This document shows positions 687 to 6,926 of a DNA stretch of 64,000 nucleotides, piece by piece. Below the pieces are notes generated by a model. The model was given only the letters and a program-made list of their open reading frames with translations. It searched no databases and was not told the DNA's origin. Position 1 is the first letter of the stretch, and every line of letters begins with the position of its first letter. Source of the stretch: an uncultured Actinomycetes bacterium (GTDB lineage: Bacteria > Actinomycetota > Thermoleophilia > Solirubrobacterales > Solirubrobacteraceae); NCBI GenBank assembly GCA_963743055.1, contig CAVUOK010000005.1:76666-140665 (forward strand). Reading direction: 5' to 3'. The translations under genes were made by a program, and so were the position numbers.

Positions 687-2660
687 TTACCGAGTCCGAG
701 GCGCCGCGATCCGCTGCTCGAGCTCGGCGCGCTCGTCCGGATCGGCCTCGCGCTCGAGCGCCGCGGCGAGGTCGGCGGCCGCGTCGGCGAAGCGCCCGAC
801 GTGCTCGTAGGCCAGCGCGCGGTTCGCGAGGATCGTCGGGTCCGGCCCGCCCGTCTGCAACGCGCGGGTCAGCAGGTCGATCGCGGCGGCGATGTCGCCG
901 CGGTCGAAGGCGAGCACCGCGCGGTTGCTCCACGCGCTGACGAGCGACGGGTCGCGATCCAGCGCGGCAGCGTACGCGGCATCGGCGGCGCTCGCCCGGC
1001 CGCGCAGCCCGAGCAGCGTGCCGCGCAGAGCGTGCAGGTGCGCGTCGTCGGGCGCGATGTCCAGGCCGGCCGCGACGTCGCGCTCGGCACCGTCCACGTC
1101 GCCAAGCTCGAGCAGCACCGAGGCGCGGTTGAGGTGCGCGTCGCGGAACGCCGGGTCGAGCTCGAGCACGCGCGAGAAGTCGGCCAGCGCGCCCTCGAGG
1201 TCGCCGAGCTCGAGCGCCAGGTCGGCGCGGTTGTAGAACGCCTCGGGGTAGGGCGGGCTGAGGCGGATCGCGTCGTCGAGGTCGGCGCGCGCCGCGTCGT
1301 AGCGCCCGAGCTTGCGGTGCAGCGCGGCGCGGTCGAAGCGGTACTCGGAGTGGTTGGGGTCCTCGGCGATCAGCCGGCCGTACTCCTCGATCGCGGCCGG
1401 CAGGCCCTCGACGCGGGTGAGTAGCTGCGCGCGGTTGTAGCGCAGGACCGAGCGATGCAGCGCGTGCTGGCCGGGCTCGAACTCGCGCTCGATGCGCTCG
1501 AGGCCGGCGTCCACGAGCCGCAGCGCCTCGTGCAGATCGCCGAGGTGCATCTCGATGAGCGCGAGGCCGTTCTCGTTGAACGTCAGGCTGAACGCGCGCC
1601 TGCGCTCGTCGTCGAGCAGGCTCGAGATCGCGATCGCGATGTTGATCTCGGCCTTCGCCTTGGCGTGGTCGCGCCGCGGCTTGTCGTAGAAGCGCGTGTG
1701 GAGCATCGCGCGGCCGTAGGCGGCCTGCAGGTGCACGAGCGGGTCGGCCGTGCGCGAGCAGGCGTCGTCGTAGAGCGCCGCGGCCTCGTCCGCGCGGCCC
1801 ATCGCGGTCAGCGCCGTGACCCACTTCGCGACGACGAGCCAGCACCGGCGCGGGTCCGAGTCCCAGTCCATGAGCGCAAGGGCGCGCGGGCACAACTCGA
1901 GCACCGCGTCATAGCAGCCGGCGAGCAGGCAGCGCTCGAGCGCCGAGCGCAGCGCGGCGACACCGGCCGCGCGGTCCGAGCCGTGCTCGCGGTGAAAGGC
2001 GATCGCGCCGAGCTCCAGCGAGCGGTCGCCGCGGGCCTCGAGCTCGAGCGCGCGCTCGTCGTGCAGCCGTGCCCGCGTGGCGGCGTCCAGCGCCGCGTAC
2101 GCCTCGGCCTCGGCGCGGCGCTCGCTCGTGCACTCCCCGGCCACGTACGCCGTCGCGAGCTCGATCGGGGAGCGCAGGTCGTGCTCGTCGCCACCCGCGA
2201 CGTTCGGGCGCACGACGATCCGCAGCTGCGCGGGATCGGCACGGCGCTGCAGGATCGCGACGAGCTCGGCGTCGGTCGCGTCGGCCTCGTCCATGCGGCG
2301 CAGCTCGATCGTCGCGCCGCCGAGCTCCTGCGCCCAGCTCATGAGCAGCTCCGCGATCCCGTGCGCGACGCGGCGCGTGTGGGCGTCGGGGTAGAAGCGC
2401 GTGCGCTCGTCGCCCGACGACGACGACGTGAGCGTCGCGCGGCGGTTCTCGACGAGCCCGTCGAGGTCGGGCGCGGCGGTGAGGATCTCGAAGTCGTGGC
2501 GCTCGGCGAGGTCGGGGCGGCGCTCGACGATCTCGGGGACGATCGCGCGCAGGATCGAGCCGGCAGCGGTGTACGGCCCGCGCAGGCGCCGGTGCGCGTC
2601 GACGTCGGCGATCGTCGGGTGCGAGGCGGTGGCGGCGGACGAGACGTAGGTAGCGGTCAT
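687..2660 (-). CDS. TPR-repeat protein (657 aa) with an unassigned ~270-aa N-terminal domain
   Basis: This is the track frame 687..3497, trimmed to the ATG at 2660 (MTATYVSSAATASHPT...). The upstream part overlaps the 2657..3823 gene and translates as Arg/Ala junk. There is an ATGA stop/start overlap at 2657-2660. The C-terminal half consists of tandem 34-aa TPR-like units (...AIEEYGRLIAEDPNHSEYRFDRAALHRKLGRYDAARADLDDAIRLSPPYPEAFYNRADLALELGDLEGALADFSRVLELDPAF...). Confidence 0.8.
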   Translation of the reverse strand: MTATYVSSAATASHPTIADVDAHRRLRGPYTAAGSILRAIVPEIVERRPDLAERHDFEILTAAPDLDGLVENRRATLTSSSSGDERTRFYPDAHTRRVAHGIAELLMSWAQELGGATIELRRMDEADATDAELVAILQRRADPAQLRIVVRPNVAGGDEHDLRSPIELATAYVAGECTSERRAEAEAYAALDAATRARLHDERALELEARGDRSLELGAIAFHREHGSDRAAGVAALRSALERCLLAGCYDAVLELCPRALALMDWDSDPRRCWLVVAKWVTALTAMGRADEAAALYDDACSRTADPLVHLQAAYGRAMLHTRFYDKPRRDHAKAKAEINIAIAISSLLDDERRRAFSLTFNENGLALIEMHLGDLHEALRLVDAGLERIEREFEPGQHALHRSVLRYNRAQLLTRVEGLPAAIEEYGRLIAEDPNHSEYRFDRAALHRKLGRYDAARADLDDAIRLSPPYPEAFYNRADLALELGDLEGALADFSRVLELDPAFRDAHLNRASVLLELGDVDGAERDVAAGLDIAPDDAHLHALRGTLLGLRGRASAADAAYAAALDRDPSLVSAWSNRAVLAFDRGDIAAAIDLLTRALQTGGPDPTILANRALAYEHVGRFADAAADLAAALEREADPDERAELEQRIAAPRTR

Positions 2661-3823
2661 GCGAGGCTCCCCGCGCTTGGCCGGGTGGCCCGCCGCTCGC
2701 GGAGCGCGACCGCGAGAGCGAGCGAGAGCTCGAACAGGGTGAGGCTCAGCAGCACGGCCGAGCCGAGCGTCTGCGAGCCCGCGGGCTCGCCGGCGAGCCA
2801 GCGCAGCGCCGGCCCGAAGAAGTGCGCCGCGAGCGGCACGATGACGAGCGCGAGCATCGTCACGGACAGCGCGTAGCCGGCGACCATGAGCGGCGCGTAC
2901 CAGCGCGCGGCGCGCCGGTCGCGGTCGCCGAAGACCCGCGCCGTGGTGGCCTCCCGCCCGTTGCGGCGCACGAGCTCGCGCAAGCGCTGGCGCGCGGCAC
3001 CGTCGAGGTCGTCGAGTCCGAGGACGGTCGTGATGAGGTAGTACACGTCCGTGCGCAGGTGAAAGAGAAACTGCCACATGATCCGCGGCAGGGTGGTGAA
3101 CGCGAGCGCGAGGCACAGGCCGCGCAGCGTGCCGCTCGTCGTGGCGGCGACGAGGATCAGCGTGGCGACGACGAGCACGTCGGCGAGCAGGCCCGCGAGG
3201 ATCACGAGGTAGCGCCGGCGGCGCGGGACGCTGACGAGGCCGTCCAGCCGCGTCTCGTAGACGGCGTAGTAGAAGCGCCGCGAGATGCGCACGCTCGTGT
3301 TCAAGCCCAGCCGGCGGCCGGCGAGCACGTGGAAGCTCTCGTGGACGAGGGCGAGCAGGGCCTGGCCGGCGAACAGCGCGACGCCGGAGATCAGCAGCGA
3401 GTCGCTGAAGCGGATGTCGGAGGCGCCGGGGACGAGCGCAGGATCGGACACGCACGCGGCGAGCGCGGCGGCGACGGCAAGCGCGTAGAGCGCCCAAGCG
3501 AACGGTGAGAAGAGCGCGCGGCCGATCCGCTGCCAGCGCAGCGGGCGGGCCGCGGCGGCGGCGGTGTCCGGCGCGTCGCCGTCGCGCACGAAGCCGAGCT
3601 CGTGCAGCGTCGCGACGACGTCGTCGATGTCGATCGCCTCGCCGTAGGTGTCGCGGTACCAGCCCGCGGCCTGCGCGGGGGAGCTACCGGCGCCGAGCTG
3701 GCGGACGAGCGCGGCGCCGTCGGGCGGGAAGTAGGCGTAGCTGTCGACGTCACGGCGCCCGATGACGACCTCGTCGCCGTCCTCGAGGAAGGACAGCGGG
3801 TGCAGAGACAGTAACGCGGACAT
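2657..3823 (-). CDS. membrane protein: PqqD/RRE-like N-terminal domain fused to a HExxH (site-2-protease/M50-like) six-TM domain
   Basis: This is a 388-aa ORF. Residues ~10-85 fit the PqqD-type pattern (DGDEVVIGRRDVDSYAYFPPDGAALVRQL...IDIDDVVATLHELGFV). About six hydrophobic helices follow. HESFH sits inside a helix and LGLDDLDG lies downstream, matching the HExxH plus LDG arrangement of M50-type enzymes. The assignment rests on motifs only. Confidence 0.75.
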   Translation of the reverse strand: MSALLSLHPLSFLEDGDEVVIGRRDVDSYAYFPPDGAALVRQLGAGSSPAQAAGWYRDTYGEAIDIDDVVATLHELGFVRDGDAPDTAAAAARPLRWQRIGRALFSPFAWALYALAVAAALAACVSDPALVPGASDIRFSDSLLISGVALFAGQALLALVHESFHVLAGRRLGLNTSVRISRRFYYAVYETRLDGLVSVPRRRRYLVILAGLLADVLVVATLILVAATTSGTLRGLCLALAFTTLPRIMWQFLFHLRTDVYYLITTVLGLDDLDGAARQRLRELVRRNGREATTARVFGDRDRRAARWYAPLMVAGYALSVTMLALVIVPLAAHFFGPALRWLAGEPAGSQTLGSAVLLSLTLFELSLALAVALRERRATRPSAGSLA

Positions 3824-3849
3824 GGGAGGAAGAGAGAAAGCGCGAAGGG

Positions 3850-3876
3850 CCCGCGGCGCGCATCCGGCGCCGCGGG
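3850..3876 (-). promoter_or_regulatory. 10-bp GC hairpin between the small peptide gene and the downstream genes (attenuator or processing-type element)
   Basis: On the plus strand this reads CCCGCGGCGC-gcatccg-GCGCCGCGGG. It begins 15 nt after the peptide stop codon and ends 26 nt before the ATG at 3823. In mRNA sense it is followed by a pyrimidine-rich stretch, CCCTTCGCGCTTTCTCTCTTCCTCCC. Confidence 0.45.
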
Positions 3877-3891
3877 ACCGGTTGCGAGTGA

Positions 3892-3978
3892 CTAGTTGCC
3901 GGCGCAGCAGCAGCAGCCGTAGCAGAACGCGGCGGTGAGACGAATGCTGCCGGCCTTGCGGATCTTCATGGTCTTCAT
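3892..3978 (-). CDS. 28-aa cysteine-rich peptide MKTMKIRKAGSIRLTAAFCYGCCCCAGN (candidate RiPP precursor or Cys-sensing leader peptide)
   Basis: Hand translation of the minus strand. The ATG is at 3978..3976 and the TAG at 3894..3892. AAGGAG (3993..3988) lies 9 nt upstream of the ATG. All five Cys codons are TGC. The ORF is below the length cutoff of the supplied track. It is the first gene of a unit bracketed by hairpins at 4046-4085 and 604-627. Confidence 0.6.
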   Translation of the reverse strand: MKTMKIRKAGSIRLTAAFCYGCCCCAGN

Positions 3979-4045
3979 TTCGGGTGACTCCTTGGGTGTG
4001 TTTGAGGTGAGTTCAAGCAACGCCGAGCCAGTCTCGCGTCGCAGC

Positions 4046-4109: not shown

Positions 4110-5756
4110 TCACGGTCCCTTGGAGAAGAGCCGCCTGAAGAAGCCGTACTTGTCGTCGAGCCAGCCGATGATCGCGAGATCGCCCGACAGCGACCGGGGC
4201 GGGTCGGAGATCAGTGAGTCCTCGCGGATCAGGCGGGCGAAGTCGATCTGCACGGGCCCGGGTGGCCGGTGCTCGCCGAACGACACGCCGGCGATCTCCA
4301 TCACCTTGATGAACTCTTGGGCCATCAGGCCGTAGAGGATCGTCGTGGGGTGGACGCCGTCCAGCGAGAAGAGGCCGCCCCGCGTGCGACCGTGCTCGGG
4401 GTCGGCCCGCAGGAAGCGCGAGTCGGGCACCGGCGATAGCTCGCGCAGCGCACGGGGCAGCGGGTACGGCGTCCACCACGGCGGGCGCGAGGCGGCATCG
4501 TCGATGTAGCGTCGCGCGGCGAGCCGGTCGAGCAGCCCACAGATGTCGAGCAGGTACCAGTCGAGGCCCGCTTCCCGAGCGTTGTGCACCGCCTCCTCGA
4601 TCGCCTCGTTGTAGAGATCGATCGCGGCGTCGATCGCCCGCGCGTCGTCAGCCGTGAGGTGGTCGTGCTTGCGGGGATCGAAGTCCTCGTCGCTGACCCA
4701 CGGGCGCGCGTAATAGGGGAAGTAGCGCGAGCCGTCGGACACCTTGTCGCCGATCCCGCGCGCGATCGGCGCGATCGTCACGTGCGGGACAGTCCCGAAG
4801 ATCACGTGCCGCGCGCGGACCATCCGTGCGGCCTCCACGAGTGCAGCCAGGTCCTGGCGGAAGTACGCGGGGTCCCAGACGGTGTAGTCCTTCGCATCCT
4901 TGCGATCGTCGGACGGGCTCGGCGGCGACCAGCACGCACGCAGCTTGACGACGGTGTCGAGCGCGTTGTTGGCGCCCAGGAGCACGATGAGCGTCTCGAT
5001 CCCGTCTCCCGAGCCGGGGTTCTCCAGCGTGCCGTCGGCGCCGAGCGCGGCCACGGTAGCCATCGGGCTCAGGCTCTCCTGGCCCGCCGGCCCGGGCGCG
5101 AGCACTCGCAGCGCCGCGCGCTCGTTGGCGTTCTGGACGAGCTGCTTGAGCAGCGCATTGGTCGGCTCGACGATGTCCGCGCGGCATGCCGCGGCGGTCC
5201 GCGTGTTCGCGTCGTGGAAGTCCCAGCCGTAGACCCCGAGGTTGTGGTTGCGGGTGAGGAACCGATTGGGGAGTTGCTCGTCGCGCTCCCACCAGTCCTC
5301 GATCTCGTCCATCATGTCGCGGATCTTCAGCGCCGCGAACGGCAGCTCCCAAGGGCTGATCTTGTCGCCGAAGCGCGCCTCGAGCTCGCGCAGGAGGTAC
5401 TCGATGTTCATCGGAAGGCCACCGAACCGGTCGTAGCTCGGGTGCTGGAAGCGGTTGTAGACGCCGAGCTCGCGAGCAATCAGCGCTGGATAGGAGAGAT
5501 CGGTGTTGTGGATCGCACCGCTCTGAAAGCCGTGTGTCAGCGAGTCGCCGACCGCCACCAGGCGGTGCGTCGGCTCCTCCTCGGACGGCTTGCGCGCCAC
5601 CGCGATGCCGAGCGTGGGATCGGTCTGCGGCGCACGTGACACGCCCCCCGGACGCGCCGCGTCCTCCGCCACGCGCTGGCGCACCTCGGCCGGAACCTCC
5701 CTGACGCACTCTCTTGGCATGCCGCAACTCCGCTCTCGTCGTGTCGTCGCGGGCAC
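4110..5756 (-). CDS. SGNH/GDSL-family hydrolase (large, with inserted regions)
   Basis: Three conserved blocks are present: VAVGDSLTHG (block I), LLGANNALD (block III) and LDGVHPT (block V). The true start may be an internal Met (MPRECV...). Confidence 0.8.
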   Translation of the reverse strand: MPATTRRERSCGMPRECVREVPAEVRQRVAEDAARPGGVSRAPQTDPTLGIAVARKPSEEEPTHRLVAVGDSLTHGFQSGAIHNTDLSYPALIARELGVYNRFQHPSYDRFGGLPMNIEYLLRELEARFGDKISPWELPFAALKIRDMMDEIEDWWERDEQLPNRFLTRNHNLGVYGWDFHDANTRTAAACRADIVEPTNALLKQLVQNANERAALRVLAPGPAGQESLSPMATVAALGADGTLENPGSGDGIETLIVLLGANNALDTVVKLRACWSPPSPSDDRKDAKDYTVWDPAYFRQDLAALVEAARMVRARHVIFGTVPHVTIAPIARGIGDKVSDGSRYFPYYARPWVSDEDFDPRKHDHLTADDARAIDAAIDLYNEAIEEAVHNAREAGLDWYLLDICGLLDRLAARRYIDDAASRPPWWTPYPLPRALRELSPVPDSRFLRADPEHGRTRGGLFSLDGVHPTTILYGLMAQEFIKVMEIAGVSFGEHRPPGPVQIDFARLIREDSLISDPPRSLSGDLAIIGWLDDKYGFFRRLFSKGP

Positions 5757-5810
5757 CGCGGCTCGCGACCTCCACCTGCAAGGAGGCGCGTCGGCGGCGC
5801 TGGATACGAC

Positions 5811-6926
5811 TTACCGGCCGAGGGCTTGCTGCACGGCGGAGAACGCGGGCTTCGGGCGCAGCGCGTCGTCGAGCAGCGTGGCGGCGCCCATCCCGGCCTG
5901 CGTCTCGGAGATCCACGAGCGCCCGTCGGTGTAGCCCCAGAACGTCAGCGACGCGCACTTGACCGCGAGGCATGCCCGCACGATCTGCGCGTAGATGTCC
6001 GCCTGTACCTGCAGGTCCGCCGGGCTCGGGGGCAGCTTCAGCGCGACGTCCGCCTCGGTGATCGCGACGTCGAGGCCGAGCGCGCGGAAGCGCTGCATGT
6101 TCGCGACGAAGTCCGCGGGCAGGCCCTGGAGGTTCGCGTGCGTCTGAAAGCCGACGCCGTCGATCGGCACGCCGCGCGCCTTCAGGTCGCGGACGATCTC
6201 GTACAGGCGGTTTGACTTCGGGCCGATCCCCTCGGCGCCGATCTCGTTGAGGTAGAGCTTCGCGTCGGGGTCCGCGACGCGCGCGGTGCGAAACGCGTCC
6301 TCGATGAAGCCGGGCCCGAGGCGGCGGGCGAAGACCGAGGGCCGCAAGCCTCCGCCGTCTGCGATCGGCTCGTTGACGACGTCCCACACGCCGACGTCCT
6401 CAGAGAAGTGCTCCATGACGGTGCGGATGTGCTCGCGCATCGCCTGGCGCAGGTCGTCGCGGCCGAGCTGGCGCACCCAGCCCGGCAGCTGGAAGTGCCA
6501 GACGAGCGTGTGCCCGCGCACCTTCTGCTTCGCCTCGCGGGCGCGCTTGACGATGTCGTCGGCGGGGCCGAACTCGTAGTCGCCGCGCGTAGGCTCGACG
6601 AGCTCCCACTTCATCTCGTTCTCTGGCGTCACGGTCGAGAACTGGGCCGCGACGAGCTGGCGGTAGGCGCGGTTGCGCTTGAGCACGTCGCCGCGGACGG
6701 CCGTCCCGATCTCCATCCCCCGCGCCTTGGCGAGGAACTTCAGCGAGTGCCCCGGCAGCGGCTTCGCATCGCCCCCGCCCCGGATCACCCAGACGGACGC
6801 GGCGACCAGCACCAAGACGAACAGCGCCGTAACCGCGACGTTGCGTGGCTTCAGAACGCGCCCTTGCGCGTGAACACTGCCGGCACGGTCTTGACGAGGA
6901 TCGAGAGATCCAGGAACACCGACCAC
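5811..6926 (-). CDS. glycoside hydrolase family 10 endo-1,4-beta-xylanase, N-terminally anchored or secreted
   Basis: Motifs present: TPENEMKWELVEP, TLVWHFQLPGW, VVNEP (acid/base) and ITEADV (nucleophile). There is an N-terminal hydrophobic segment, VTALFVLVLVAASVWVI. The ATG at 6926 gives a 76-nt overlap with the upstream gene, so the start is uncertain. Confidence 0.9.
   Translation of the reverse strand: MVGVPGSLDPRQDRAGSVHAQGRVLKPRNVAVTALFVLVLVAASVWVIRGGGDAKPLPGHSLKFLAKARGMEIGTAVRGDVLKRNRAYRQLVAAQFSTVTPENEMKWELVEPTRGDYEFGPADDIVKRAREAKQKVRGHTLVWHFQLPGWVRQLGRDDLRQAMREHIRTVMEHFSEDVGVWDVVNEPIADGGGLRPSVFARRLGPGFIEDAFRTARVADPDAKLYLNEIGAEGIGPKSNRLYEIVRDLKARGVPIDGVGFQTHANLQGLPADFVANMQRFRALGLDVAITEADVALKLPPSPADLQVQADIYAQIVRACLAVKCASLTFWGYTDGRSWISETQAGMGAATLLDDALRPKPAFSAVQQALGR

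Follow-up and report, generated by a model that had tools for sequence, protein, structure and literature searches.

A cysteine-rich small open reading frame of a Solirubrobacteraceae bacterium as the probable precursor gene of a RiPP-like three-gene cassette

Daptides, one of the classes of peptides that are ribosomally synthesised and post-translationally modified (RiPPs), were found by way of a site-2 peptidase fused to a RiPP recognition element (RRE), which acts as the leader peptidase (bioRxiv 10.1101/2023.03.08.531785). Proteases of the M50 family also mature the epipeptides and the pearlins, and the epipeptide protease EpeP is thought both to cleave and to export (PMC10885120). The polycysteine small open reading frames (sORFs) of mycobacteria are leaderless, and their consecutive Cys codons are functional (Canestrari et al., bioRxiv 10.1101/834739): a ribosome paused upon them opens a duplex that conceals the following gene's ribosome-binding site. 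The present analysis concerns a cysteine-rich sORF of 28 residues within a 64,000-nucleotide stretch of DNA, hereafter the window, from an uncultured Actinomycetes bacterium of the Solirubrobacteraceae (GenBank assembly GCA_963743055.1, contig CAVUOK010000005.1, positions 76,666 to 140,665). This sORF is followed on the same strand by the genes for a membrane protein with an HExxH motif and for a tetratricopeptide repeat (TPR) protein. We consider it probable that it encodes the precursor, with leader and core, of a ribosomal peptide that is matured by the products of these two genes. The family to which it belongs is RiPP-like, with a leader-plus-core organisation, and what we say of its chemistry is confined to sequence and predicted structure.

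A conserved leader joined to a variable core

The precursor gene (3978..3892, minus strand) comprises 28 codons and a TAG stop and translates as MKTMKIRKAGSIRLTAAFCYGCCCCAGN, exactly the peptide described in the initial annotation, which had left the strand unnamed. A Shine-Dalgarno (SD) sequence, AAGGAG, can be read on the same strand 9 nt before its ATG (3993..3988). Residues 1-17, MKTMKIRKAGSIRLTAA (3928..3978, minus strand), are delineated by the alignment as the putative leader, and this segment is basic as annotated, with K2, K5, R7, K8 and R13 all present in the translation. Residues 18-28, FCYGCCCCAGN (3895..3927, minus strand), constitute the putative core according to the alignment and the tail statistics described below. 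This segment includes Tyr20 (3921..3919), which is conserved family-wide, and five Cys inside residues 19-25, all of them encoded by TGC as had been noted, with four in succession forming the Cys22-25 run (3915..3904).

The relatives of this gene were collected by way of its neighbour. A profile of the HExxH protein recovered 377 relatives from species-representative genomes, of which the best 80 loci were examined, and 356 relatives of a distant branch from metagenomes, of which again 80 loci (L083-L162) were examined. The 80 genome loci belong nearly all to the Actinomycetota, including Streptomyces, Kitasatospora, Lentzea, Micromonospora, Dactylosporangium, Nocardia, Acidimicrobiia and Solirubrobacterales. 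In 79/79 of the genome loci that retain upstream DNA the HExxH gene is directly preceded by an sORF on the same strand (77 by a simple motif search, together with divergent copies in L048 and L075; the truncated L026 was excluded), and a homologous sORF occupies the same position in 70/80 metagenome loci. The loci bearing it, taking both sets together, range in GC content from 37 to 72%, and in most relatives GGAG or GGAGG precedes the sORF start at an equal spacing.

These data decide between a gene and a chance reading frame created by a (GCA)4/(TGC)4 repeat in GC-rich intergenic DNA. The Cys run is indeed a perfect trinucleotide repeat of this form, and although a CCCC run occurs only once in the six-frame translation of the window, namely in this sORF, CCC runs occur ten times in its GC-rich, non-coding frames, so that composition alone is no proof of a gene. 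However, homologues at the same position over so wide a range of GC content, the SD sequences upstream of them, a conservation of the leader that is specific to codon position, and the use of TGT as well as TGC for Cys across the family together refute an origin by chance, to which we assign next to no likelihood. Because homologous sORFs occupy the same position across loci, the sORF of the window is accepted, on sequence comparison, as a real gene.

Codon and tail statistics were computed over 84 distinct precursor genes. The leader of these follows the consensus M-K-K-I-x-[VI]-R-K-[APV]-G-x-V-R-L-T-[SA]-[AS]-A, in which K2, R7, K8, G10, R13, L14 and T15 are invariant. The codons of the invariant residues show no entropy (0 bits) in their positions 1-2 but up to 1.5 bits in position 3, and this freedom of the third positions points to purifying selection on the peptide and not on the RNA. 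The Tyr equivalent to Tyr20 is conserved in more than 90% of the aligned precursors, and some Tyr is found in 83/84 tails. The C-terminal 8-25 residues are hypervariable, and all 84 distinct tails contain Cys, with a single Cys in 45 and five or more in 19. In several loci 2-7 precursor copies with differing cores stand in tandem, as in L061 with seven, L059 with four and L075 with three. Judged from these alignments, the union of a conserved N-terminus with a hypervariable C-terminus is the anatomy of a leader-plus-core precursor, that is, the conserved leader joined to a variable core by which RiPP precursors are recognised.

The core types are fully congruent with a neighbour-joining tree of the HExxH proteins, suggesting that the processing protein follows not only the leader but also the core. 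The window falls into a poly-Cys clade of 20 loci with cores of the form [FY]-C-Y-[GCA]-x-C-C-C followed by a tail of 1-12 residues. Cultured strains with this core type include Lentzea terrae NEAU-LZS 42, Nocardia yamanashiensis NBRC 100130 and Dactylosporangium aurantiacum NRRL B-8018. The clade has members in Microbacterium, Lentzea, Nocardia, Dactylosporangium, Dermatophilaceae, Frankiaceae, Kineosporiaceae, Acidimicrobiia and Solirubrobacterales, and the other clades are typified by cores with C-x-x-Y (for example SSACSHYPSPA), AYCCG/CYCGG and x-L-Y...C. The distant branch, on metagenome contigs with GC contents of 37-69%, has a leader of its own that is related to the first, MK[KR][FI]x[IV]RE[VA]ET[LV]KTTAAxY (typically MKKFxIREVETLKTTAAxY), and its tails contain Cys in 74/76 and Tyr in 75/76 cases. 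Poly-Cys cores recur there, an example being VACYCCCCGNGNG.

Neither Pfam nor NCBIfam has a model that covers the peptides, and in existing annotations they are either uncalled or labelled 'hypothetical protein'; the 32-aa poly-Cys precursor of L082, for instance, is annotated as a gene under the latter name. A search with a 42-aa extended open reading frame (ORF) as the protein query returned only a single 28-aa relative, such scarcity in protein databases being due to the fact that sORFs of this kind are almost never called as genes. The closest relatives, L001-L003, are metagenome-assembled genomes (MAGs) of uncultured Actinomycetes with proteins 79-84% identical to those of the window, whose HExxH protein had no exact match on record. 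The sORF of the window shows synonymous differences from L001, L002 and L003 at 0/23, 0/27 and 0/22 identical-residue codons respectively, and in the adjacent HExxH gene of the four closest relatives about 20% of such codons differ (64/314). The ATT and CGT codons of the sORF, both presumed rare at the GC content of the window (on expected and not on counted codon usage), are retained in all four closest relatives. The lack of synonymous change may reflect a constraint at the nucleotide level or simply the short length of the gene. A locus labelled as a Candidatus Melainabacteria MAG (L035, CAVPCF010000161.1) carries a precursor of the actinobacterial type, MKKITVRKAGSVRLTSAAQPLYGGCVAV, along with the cassette, and is probably a mis-binned contig.

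The predicted leader-binding protease, its TPR partner and neighbouring genes

The gene following the sORF (3823..2657, minus strand) encodes a polytopic protein of 388 aa with the motif HESFH at residues 161-165 (3343..3329), and its earlier description as a membrane HExxH protein is thereby borne out. Its AlphaFold2 model (pLDDT 88) places at residues ~8-85 a PqqD-like winged helix of three strands and three helices, which corresponds to an RRE. Foldseek matched this domain to the lasso peptide protein B1 (6jx3_B), TbiB1, McbB, ThcOx, TigE and SkfB with probabilities of 0.84-1.0, the match to PbtF being weaker (0.41); the superposition on 6jx3_B gave a TM-score of 0.69 on the target with an rmsd of 2.5. 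An RRE protein encoded next to the peptide, as expected of a RiPP precursor, is thus found in the predicted fold of this neighbour. The membrane domain recovered the site-2 proteases SpoIVFB (8vjm, probability 0.63) and RseP (7w6y, probability 0.33). The HExxH motif is present in 32/32 sequences, and H161, E162, H165, D215 and D259 are invariant. H161-E162-x-x-H165 lies inside the predicted helix 143-171, giving the HExxH within a transmembrane helix that characterises M50 proteases, and for the Asp zinc ligand of a second, LDG-type membrane motif there are two invariant candidates, D215 (in LAGxLAD) and D259 (in RTDxY). Weak matches to Pfam Peptidase_M50 were seen in 15/32 members (best E 0.0032) and to PqqD in 5/32, while the NCBIfam daptide_HExxH model and the YydH/LiaK epipeptide protease model each matched weakly in 3/32. 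On the basis of the predicted structure, the protein is an RRE fused to a divergent M50-like intramembrane metalloprotease, and by analogy with described systems we propose that it is the leader peptidase.

The distant relatives of this protein retain the RRE and HExxH architecture, and a hidden Markov model search of the whole protein library with its profile gathered, at E<=0.001, 1,603 clusters formed at 50% identity. One of these distant relatives, P0360 (722 aa), combines a PqqD-like domain and a ThiF/E1-like adenylyltransferase domain with the RRE and the HExxH membrane domain, and this fusion links the protease family to other RiPP-type enzymology.

The identity of the membrane domain also bears on a lipidated peptide, which had been floated in the initial annotation on the grounds that the C-terminal C-A-G-N has the formal C-a-a-X spacing and stands beside a membrane HExxH protein. 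The C-A-G-N would then be a prenylation and processing box and its neighbour a Ste24-like protease. Yet the spacing is a property of this one sequence: the C-terminus past the Cys run is unconserved even within the poly-Cys clade, where it has 1-12 residues (L, TGN, AGN, AVRAL, GGRAAI, SGGFGPPPIRIV), with the consequence that a Cys at position -4 is not conserved. The membrane domain resembles that of the site-2 proteases SpoIVFB and RseP, no Ste24 or M48 protein occurs among the 50 best Foldseek matches listed, and the conserved synteny includes no prenyltransferase. This reading is scarcely credible and is rejected.

The third gene (2660..687, minus strand) overlaps the stop of the HExxH gene with its start (ATGA) and is translationally coupled to it. 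It encodes a cytoplasmic protein of 657 aa, modelled by AlphaFold2 with a pLDDT of 93.8, in which an alpha/beta domain (residues ~16-160) is followed by a TPR superhelix (residues ~165-657). Searches of Foldseek with the whole protein recovered only generic TPR solenoids, such as the TPR domain of OGT, and because these dominate the results no fold could be assigned to the N-terminal domain; nor did this domain have a meaningful sequence match in the PDB. The C-terminal half of the AAA_16 model, however, matched weakly in 12/15 members (best E 3.3e-5), and this match, along with the absence of the Walker A lysine, suggests that the domain is a degenerate STAND-type NTPase module. In 78/80 genome loci the TPR gene is the one that directly follows the HExxH gene, and in 66/80 loci of the distant branch this place is taken by a homologue of its N-terminal domain. 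Both branches conserve, in the partner protein, the residues G28, E58, T78, R88, Y90, G101, R139 and R140.

Synteny over the whole family is limited to these three genes, namely the sORF, the HExxH gene and the TPR gene. The two larger proteins are annotated as 'hypothetical' or as 'tetratricopeptide repeat protein', and when the three conserved genes were searched with NCBIfam, Pfam and PADLOC, the only families to reach curated thresholds were generic TPR repeats in the third gene; the one PADLOC match within the cassette was TPR noise. A modification enzyme, which would be expected to be encoded with a RiPP precursor, was not found among the three. The initial suggestion of a RiPP core is upheld in general, as to the leader-and-core anatomy beside an RRE-fused protease; the particular chemistry put forward with it, namely disulfide or thioether formation or metal chelation, is a conjecture, and the conserved cassette has no recognisable modifying enzyme. 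Given that no modifier was recognised, the peptide may not be a RiPP in the strict sense of a modified product and could be merely cleaved.

Certain genes accompany the cassette in some of its sub-families. A Flavin_Reduct (PF01613) gene stands directly after the TPR gene in about 41 loci, which for the most part have C-x-x-Y and YCCG/YCGG cores (within L010-L079, about 3.0-3.9 kb past the start of the HExxH-gene match, for example at 9303-9797 of L022). The window and most of the poly-Cys loci lack it, and this distribution hints at a redox tailoring in those core sub-families only. SARP-type regulators, which are typical of actinobacterial secondary-metabolite clusters, are found in about 30 loci. 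In Lentzea terrae (L082, QFWW01000008.1, 954-9525) the cassette has as neighbours a pair of SARP-type regulators and a lanthipeptide cluster of class II, which comprises a LanM (DUF4135 and LANC_like), a peptide with DUF6229 and an ABC transporter. In about 30 loci of the distant branch the next gene encodes a duplicated MacB_PCD/FtsX permease of about 850 aa, and a permease of this type after the cassette fits an exported peptide.

The nature of the partner protein and of these accessory genes is relevant to a reading in which the protease would yield an unmodified or merely oxidised Cys/Tyr peptide serving as a pheromone or an intracellular signal, with the co-encoded STAND-like TPR protein as its sensor. 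The analogy is with the SHP/Rgg and other RRNPP systems, in which the propeptide is processed by Eep, an M50 protease, and the peptide is bound by a receptor of the TPR type. The lack of a modifying enzyme in the conserved cassette agrees with such a signal, as do the short precursors with a basic N-terminus and a variable C-terminal part, and a TPR array with a degenerate STAND NTPase module is a typical sensor architecture. On the other hand, the TPR protein lacks any output domain, DNA-binding or otherwise, one locus may hold multiple precursors with different cores, the adjoining SARP regulators and MacB/FtsX permeases are a better fit to a secreted bioactive peptide, and the fusion of RRE and S2P has so far been met with in the maturation of RiPPs. 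We regard a peptide signal as unlikely, although it is the most serious of the competitors to a leader-plus-core precursor that is matured by its two neighbours.

Beyond the cassette, the upstream gene of the window (4110-5756, minus strand) encodes a 548-aa protein with only a weak N-terminal match to GDSL lipases, and a downstream minus-strand ORF (1-686) runs off the start of the window. Both are unconserved with the cassette beyond the closest MAGs and are probably unrelated neighbours. On the contig of the closest related MAG two genes with TIR_2 domains (L081, 15056-17396) lie a few kb downstream of the cassette.

The intergenic hairpin and the run of cysteine codons

A GC-rich hairpin begins 16 nt past the sORF stop (3850..3876, minus strand). 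Its arms can be read directly from the sequence as 3876..3867, CCCGCGGCGC, and 3859..3850, GCGCCGCGGG, and form a perfect 10-bp stem around a 7-nt loop, so that the structure reported at 3850-3876 in the initial annotation is real. In the window the 70 nt past the stop fold with -29.6 kcal/mol (z = -2.3), and on the 3' side of the hairpin follow a pyrimidine/U-rich tract and then the ATG of the HExxH gene. The feature is present family-wide: the median z past the precursor stop is -2.66 as against -0.51 for a 70-nt upstream control, and the median uninterrupted stem is 12 bp as against 7 bp. It occurs also after single-Cys precursors and after each copy of the tandem arrays, and its sequence varies between loci, with compensatory changes in the stem in L001-L003. 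It is probably a partial terminator or an mRNA-stabilising stem-loop placed between the precursor and the maturation genes; stem-loops are common after the precursor genes of RiPP operons.

Four consecutive TGC codons in the neighbourhood of a strong hairpin are also what a cis-regulatory leader peptide would present, that is, a cysteine-responsive attenuator like the polycysteine sORFs of mycobacteria. Such attenuators exist in mycobacteria and require nothing beyond a succession of at least two Cys codons (bioRxiv 10.1101/834739), and the four closest relatives are without synonymous differences in the sORF, which is compatible with a role of the RNA. The resemblance indeed goes further, since both are actinobacterial sORFs with consecutive Cys codons which form the first gene of an operon and are separated by an RNA structure from the next. 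The comparison of amino-acid with Cys-codon conservation in relatives, which the initial annotation had put forward as a check, nevertheless went against an attenuator: the residues of the leader are conserved, at the level of amino acids and with variable third positions, whereas the Cys run is dispensable, with single-Cys precursors in the majority and the hairpin present regardless of Cys content.

The remaining features of the locus differ from those of the mycobacterial attenuators in the same direction. The sORF has an SD sequence, which speaks against a leaderless translation like that of the mycobacterial sORFs; the mycobacterial attenuators regulate cysteine-responsive loci, while the genes downstream of the present sORF are, as had been suspected at the outset, unrelated to cysteine metabolism and encode a peptide-processing RRE-protease and a TPR protein. 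Likewise, the failure to find an alternative (antiterminator) pairing by eye was confirmed by folding, the 201 nt of 3800-4000 folding no better than shuffled sequences (z +0.88) with the terminal hairpin retained. From the size of the ribosomal footprint, a ribosome stalled on the Cys codons would not extend as far as a hairpin 16 nt past the stop. A duplex hiding the downstream ribosome-binding site was likewise considered and discarded, in that the hairpin forms a closed unit and no SD sequence stands before the HExxH gene to be sequestered. Taken together, these differences make a cysteine attenuator very improbable, and it is rejected here. They also counsel caution in the annotation of sORFs, in that an actinobacterial poly-Cys sORF followed by a hairpin need not signify a cysteine attenuator.

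A scan for sigma-70 promoters found no site, such a scan being uninformative for high-GC actinobacteria; Rfam returned nothing relevant for the region at E<=1 or for the whole window at gathering thresholds; and there are no tRNAs in the window. The intergenic DNA of two relatives is odd, with homopolymer runs of about 25 G and 12 C in the hairpin region of L031 (~5870-5930) and with a masked stretch (XXXX) in L048 (~5700-5830) flanked by sequence that translates as poly-Gly and poly-Pro; these look like assembly artefacts.

A proposed maturation pathway and its relation to described systems

In the pathway that we propose for the leader-plus-core precursor, the cytoplasmic RRE would bind the leader as an added beta-strand, and the intramembrane metalloprotease would cut the leader off between T-[SA]-A-A and the conserved Tyr, possibly releasing the core at or across the membrane. 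This cleavage and release are modelled on the proposals made for the daptide protease MpaP and the epipeptide protease EpeP/YydH. The TPR protein may bind the peptide or hold it for the protease; alternatively, it may present the peptide for, or itself perform, an unrecognised modification of its Tyr or Cys residues. The GC-rich hairpin would lower read-through or stabilise the short transcript, leaving the precursor in excess over the processing proteins. In the poly-Cys clade the mature product is likely to be a small thiol-rich peptide, either cross-linked or metal-binding.

This reading is favoured because the sORF stands upstream in 79/79 loci, its leader is under protein-level selection and its core is variable; because the three genes are syntenic, the predicted folds are those of an RRE and an S2P-like protease, and core and protease have co-evolved; and because the distant branch keeps the cassette, SARP and flavin-reductase genes accompany it, daptides offer a precedent and the hairpin is family-wide. 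Several observations weigh against it. No recognisable modification enzyme was found by Pfam and NCBIfam in the conserved cassette or nearby in the window, and the cassette of the window has no transporter. The E-values from Foldseek are weak (0.1-4), though the probabilities for the RRE are high; the HExxH protein falls short of the gathering score of PF02163 (14.8 against a cut-off of 27.2 bits); the matches to M50, PqqD, daptide_HExxH and YydH/LiaK are all far below the curated cut-offs; and the profile of the protein has no meaningful sequence matches in the PDB. The HExxH gene lacks a visible SD sequence, having before its ATG a pyrimidine tract with CCTCC, CTTTCTCTCTTCCTCCC (3824-3845), which suggests a translation initiation that is weak or unusual relative to that of the precursor. 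Finally, the placing of the cut, the topology and the part played by the TPR protein are ones that we infer.

A bolder proposal, which we advance tentatively as a possibility short of an even chance, is that the three-gene cassette constitutes a new RiPP class of Actinomycetota and metagenome contigs, with the degenerate-STAND/TPR protein as its class-defining maturase or chaperone. The TPR protein might then act on the near-invariant Tyr and the adjacent Cys, for example to form a Tyr-Cys or a Cys-based cross-link, or it might assemble a thiol-rich metal-binding peptide, and the RRE-fused intramembrane protease would both remove the leader and release the product. Were this so, the window would encode, in FCYGCCCCAGN, a core from a poly-thiol subclass that has no known counterpart. 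More generally, the lack of a known modifying enzyme could mean either a new chemistry of a TPR/STAND-like protein or a minimal system for leader-guided peptide release.

The cassette of peptide, putative leader-binding membrane protease and TPR partner is apparently both widespread and undescribed. Searches of the literature with the leader and core strings of both branches found no relevant paper, a description in a subscription journal or a supplement remaining possible, and a keyword search for RRE, M50 and TPR together found nothing describing the cassette.

Among the described systems that use a protease of comparable type, the SHP/Rgg and RRNPP systems share with the cassette a short propeptide with a basic N-terminus, an M50 intramembrane protease and a nearby TPR protein of the peptide-binding type. 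Unlike the RRNPP receptors, the TPR protein of the cassette has a degenerate NTPase module and no HTH output domain; its protease is RRE-bearing and cluster-specific, unlike the housekeeping Eep; and its cores are rich in Cys and Tyr, whereas those of SHP are hydrophobic. The epipeptides (YydF/EpeX with YydH/EpeP) and the pearlins (with TglG/TmoG) resemble it in that a small precursor is encoded in the same operon as a membrane M50-type protease. Similarity to the YydH/LiaK model (NF058609) is weak, with an E-value of 0.11 for the protein of the window and of 0.0097 for the best member, and the radical-SAM epimerase YydG of the epipeptides and the PEARL/MNIO enzymes of the pearlins are absent from the cassette. 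Furthermore, the cassette protease carries an RRE, unlike the epipeptide and pearlin proteases, and the precursors are unrelated.

The daptides differ from the cassette in their leader motif ELExMEAP and their invariant C-terminal Thr, both of which are absent here, the leader being MKKIxVRKAGxVRLT and the C-termini variable (N, L, A, V, F and others). None of the enzymes that define the class, namely MpaB (DUF-RRE), MpaC (an oxidative decarboxylase resembling alcohol dehydrogenases), MpaD (an aminotransferase) and MpaM (a methyltransferase), occurs among the syntenic genes, and Pfam scans of the flanking ORFs of the window, inclusive of the upstream GDSL-like gene, found none of these families. 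Identity with the daptides is ruled out by the missing leader motif, C-terminal Thr and MpaB, MpaC, MpaD and MpaM. The similarity to daptide_HExxH (NF041824) is remote: E-values reach 6.8e-6 for a member of the distant branch and 7.8e-4 for the best actinobacterial member, the best score is 25.4 bits against a cut-off of 300, and the protein of the window has no match at E<=0.1. In place of the daptide enzymes the cassette has a STAND-like TPR protein, and its cores are of the Cys/Tyr type. Even so, the daptides (MpaA with MpaP/DapP) are the nearest precedent in general organisation. In either system the precursor is short, frequently present in more than one copy, and made up of a conserved leader at the N-terminus and a core that varies, and the leader peptidase combines an N-terminal RRE with an intramembrane HExxH site-2-type protease, predicted in the case of the cassette; both are found in Actinomycetota, the daptides also in Bacillota. 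The cassette may on these grounds be viewed as an RRE-dependent ribosomal peptide pathway and as a sister lead to the daptides, a class that emerged in 2023 from RRE-guided genome mining. With 377 species-representative genomes and 356 metagenome contigs it is a lead of comparable or larger size, and its compactness (three genes in 3.3 kb) makes heterologous expression straightforward.

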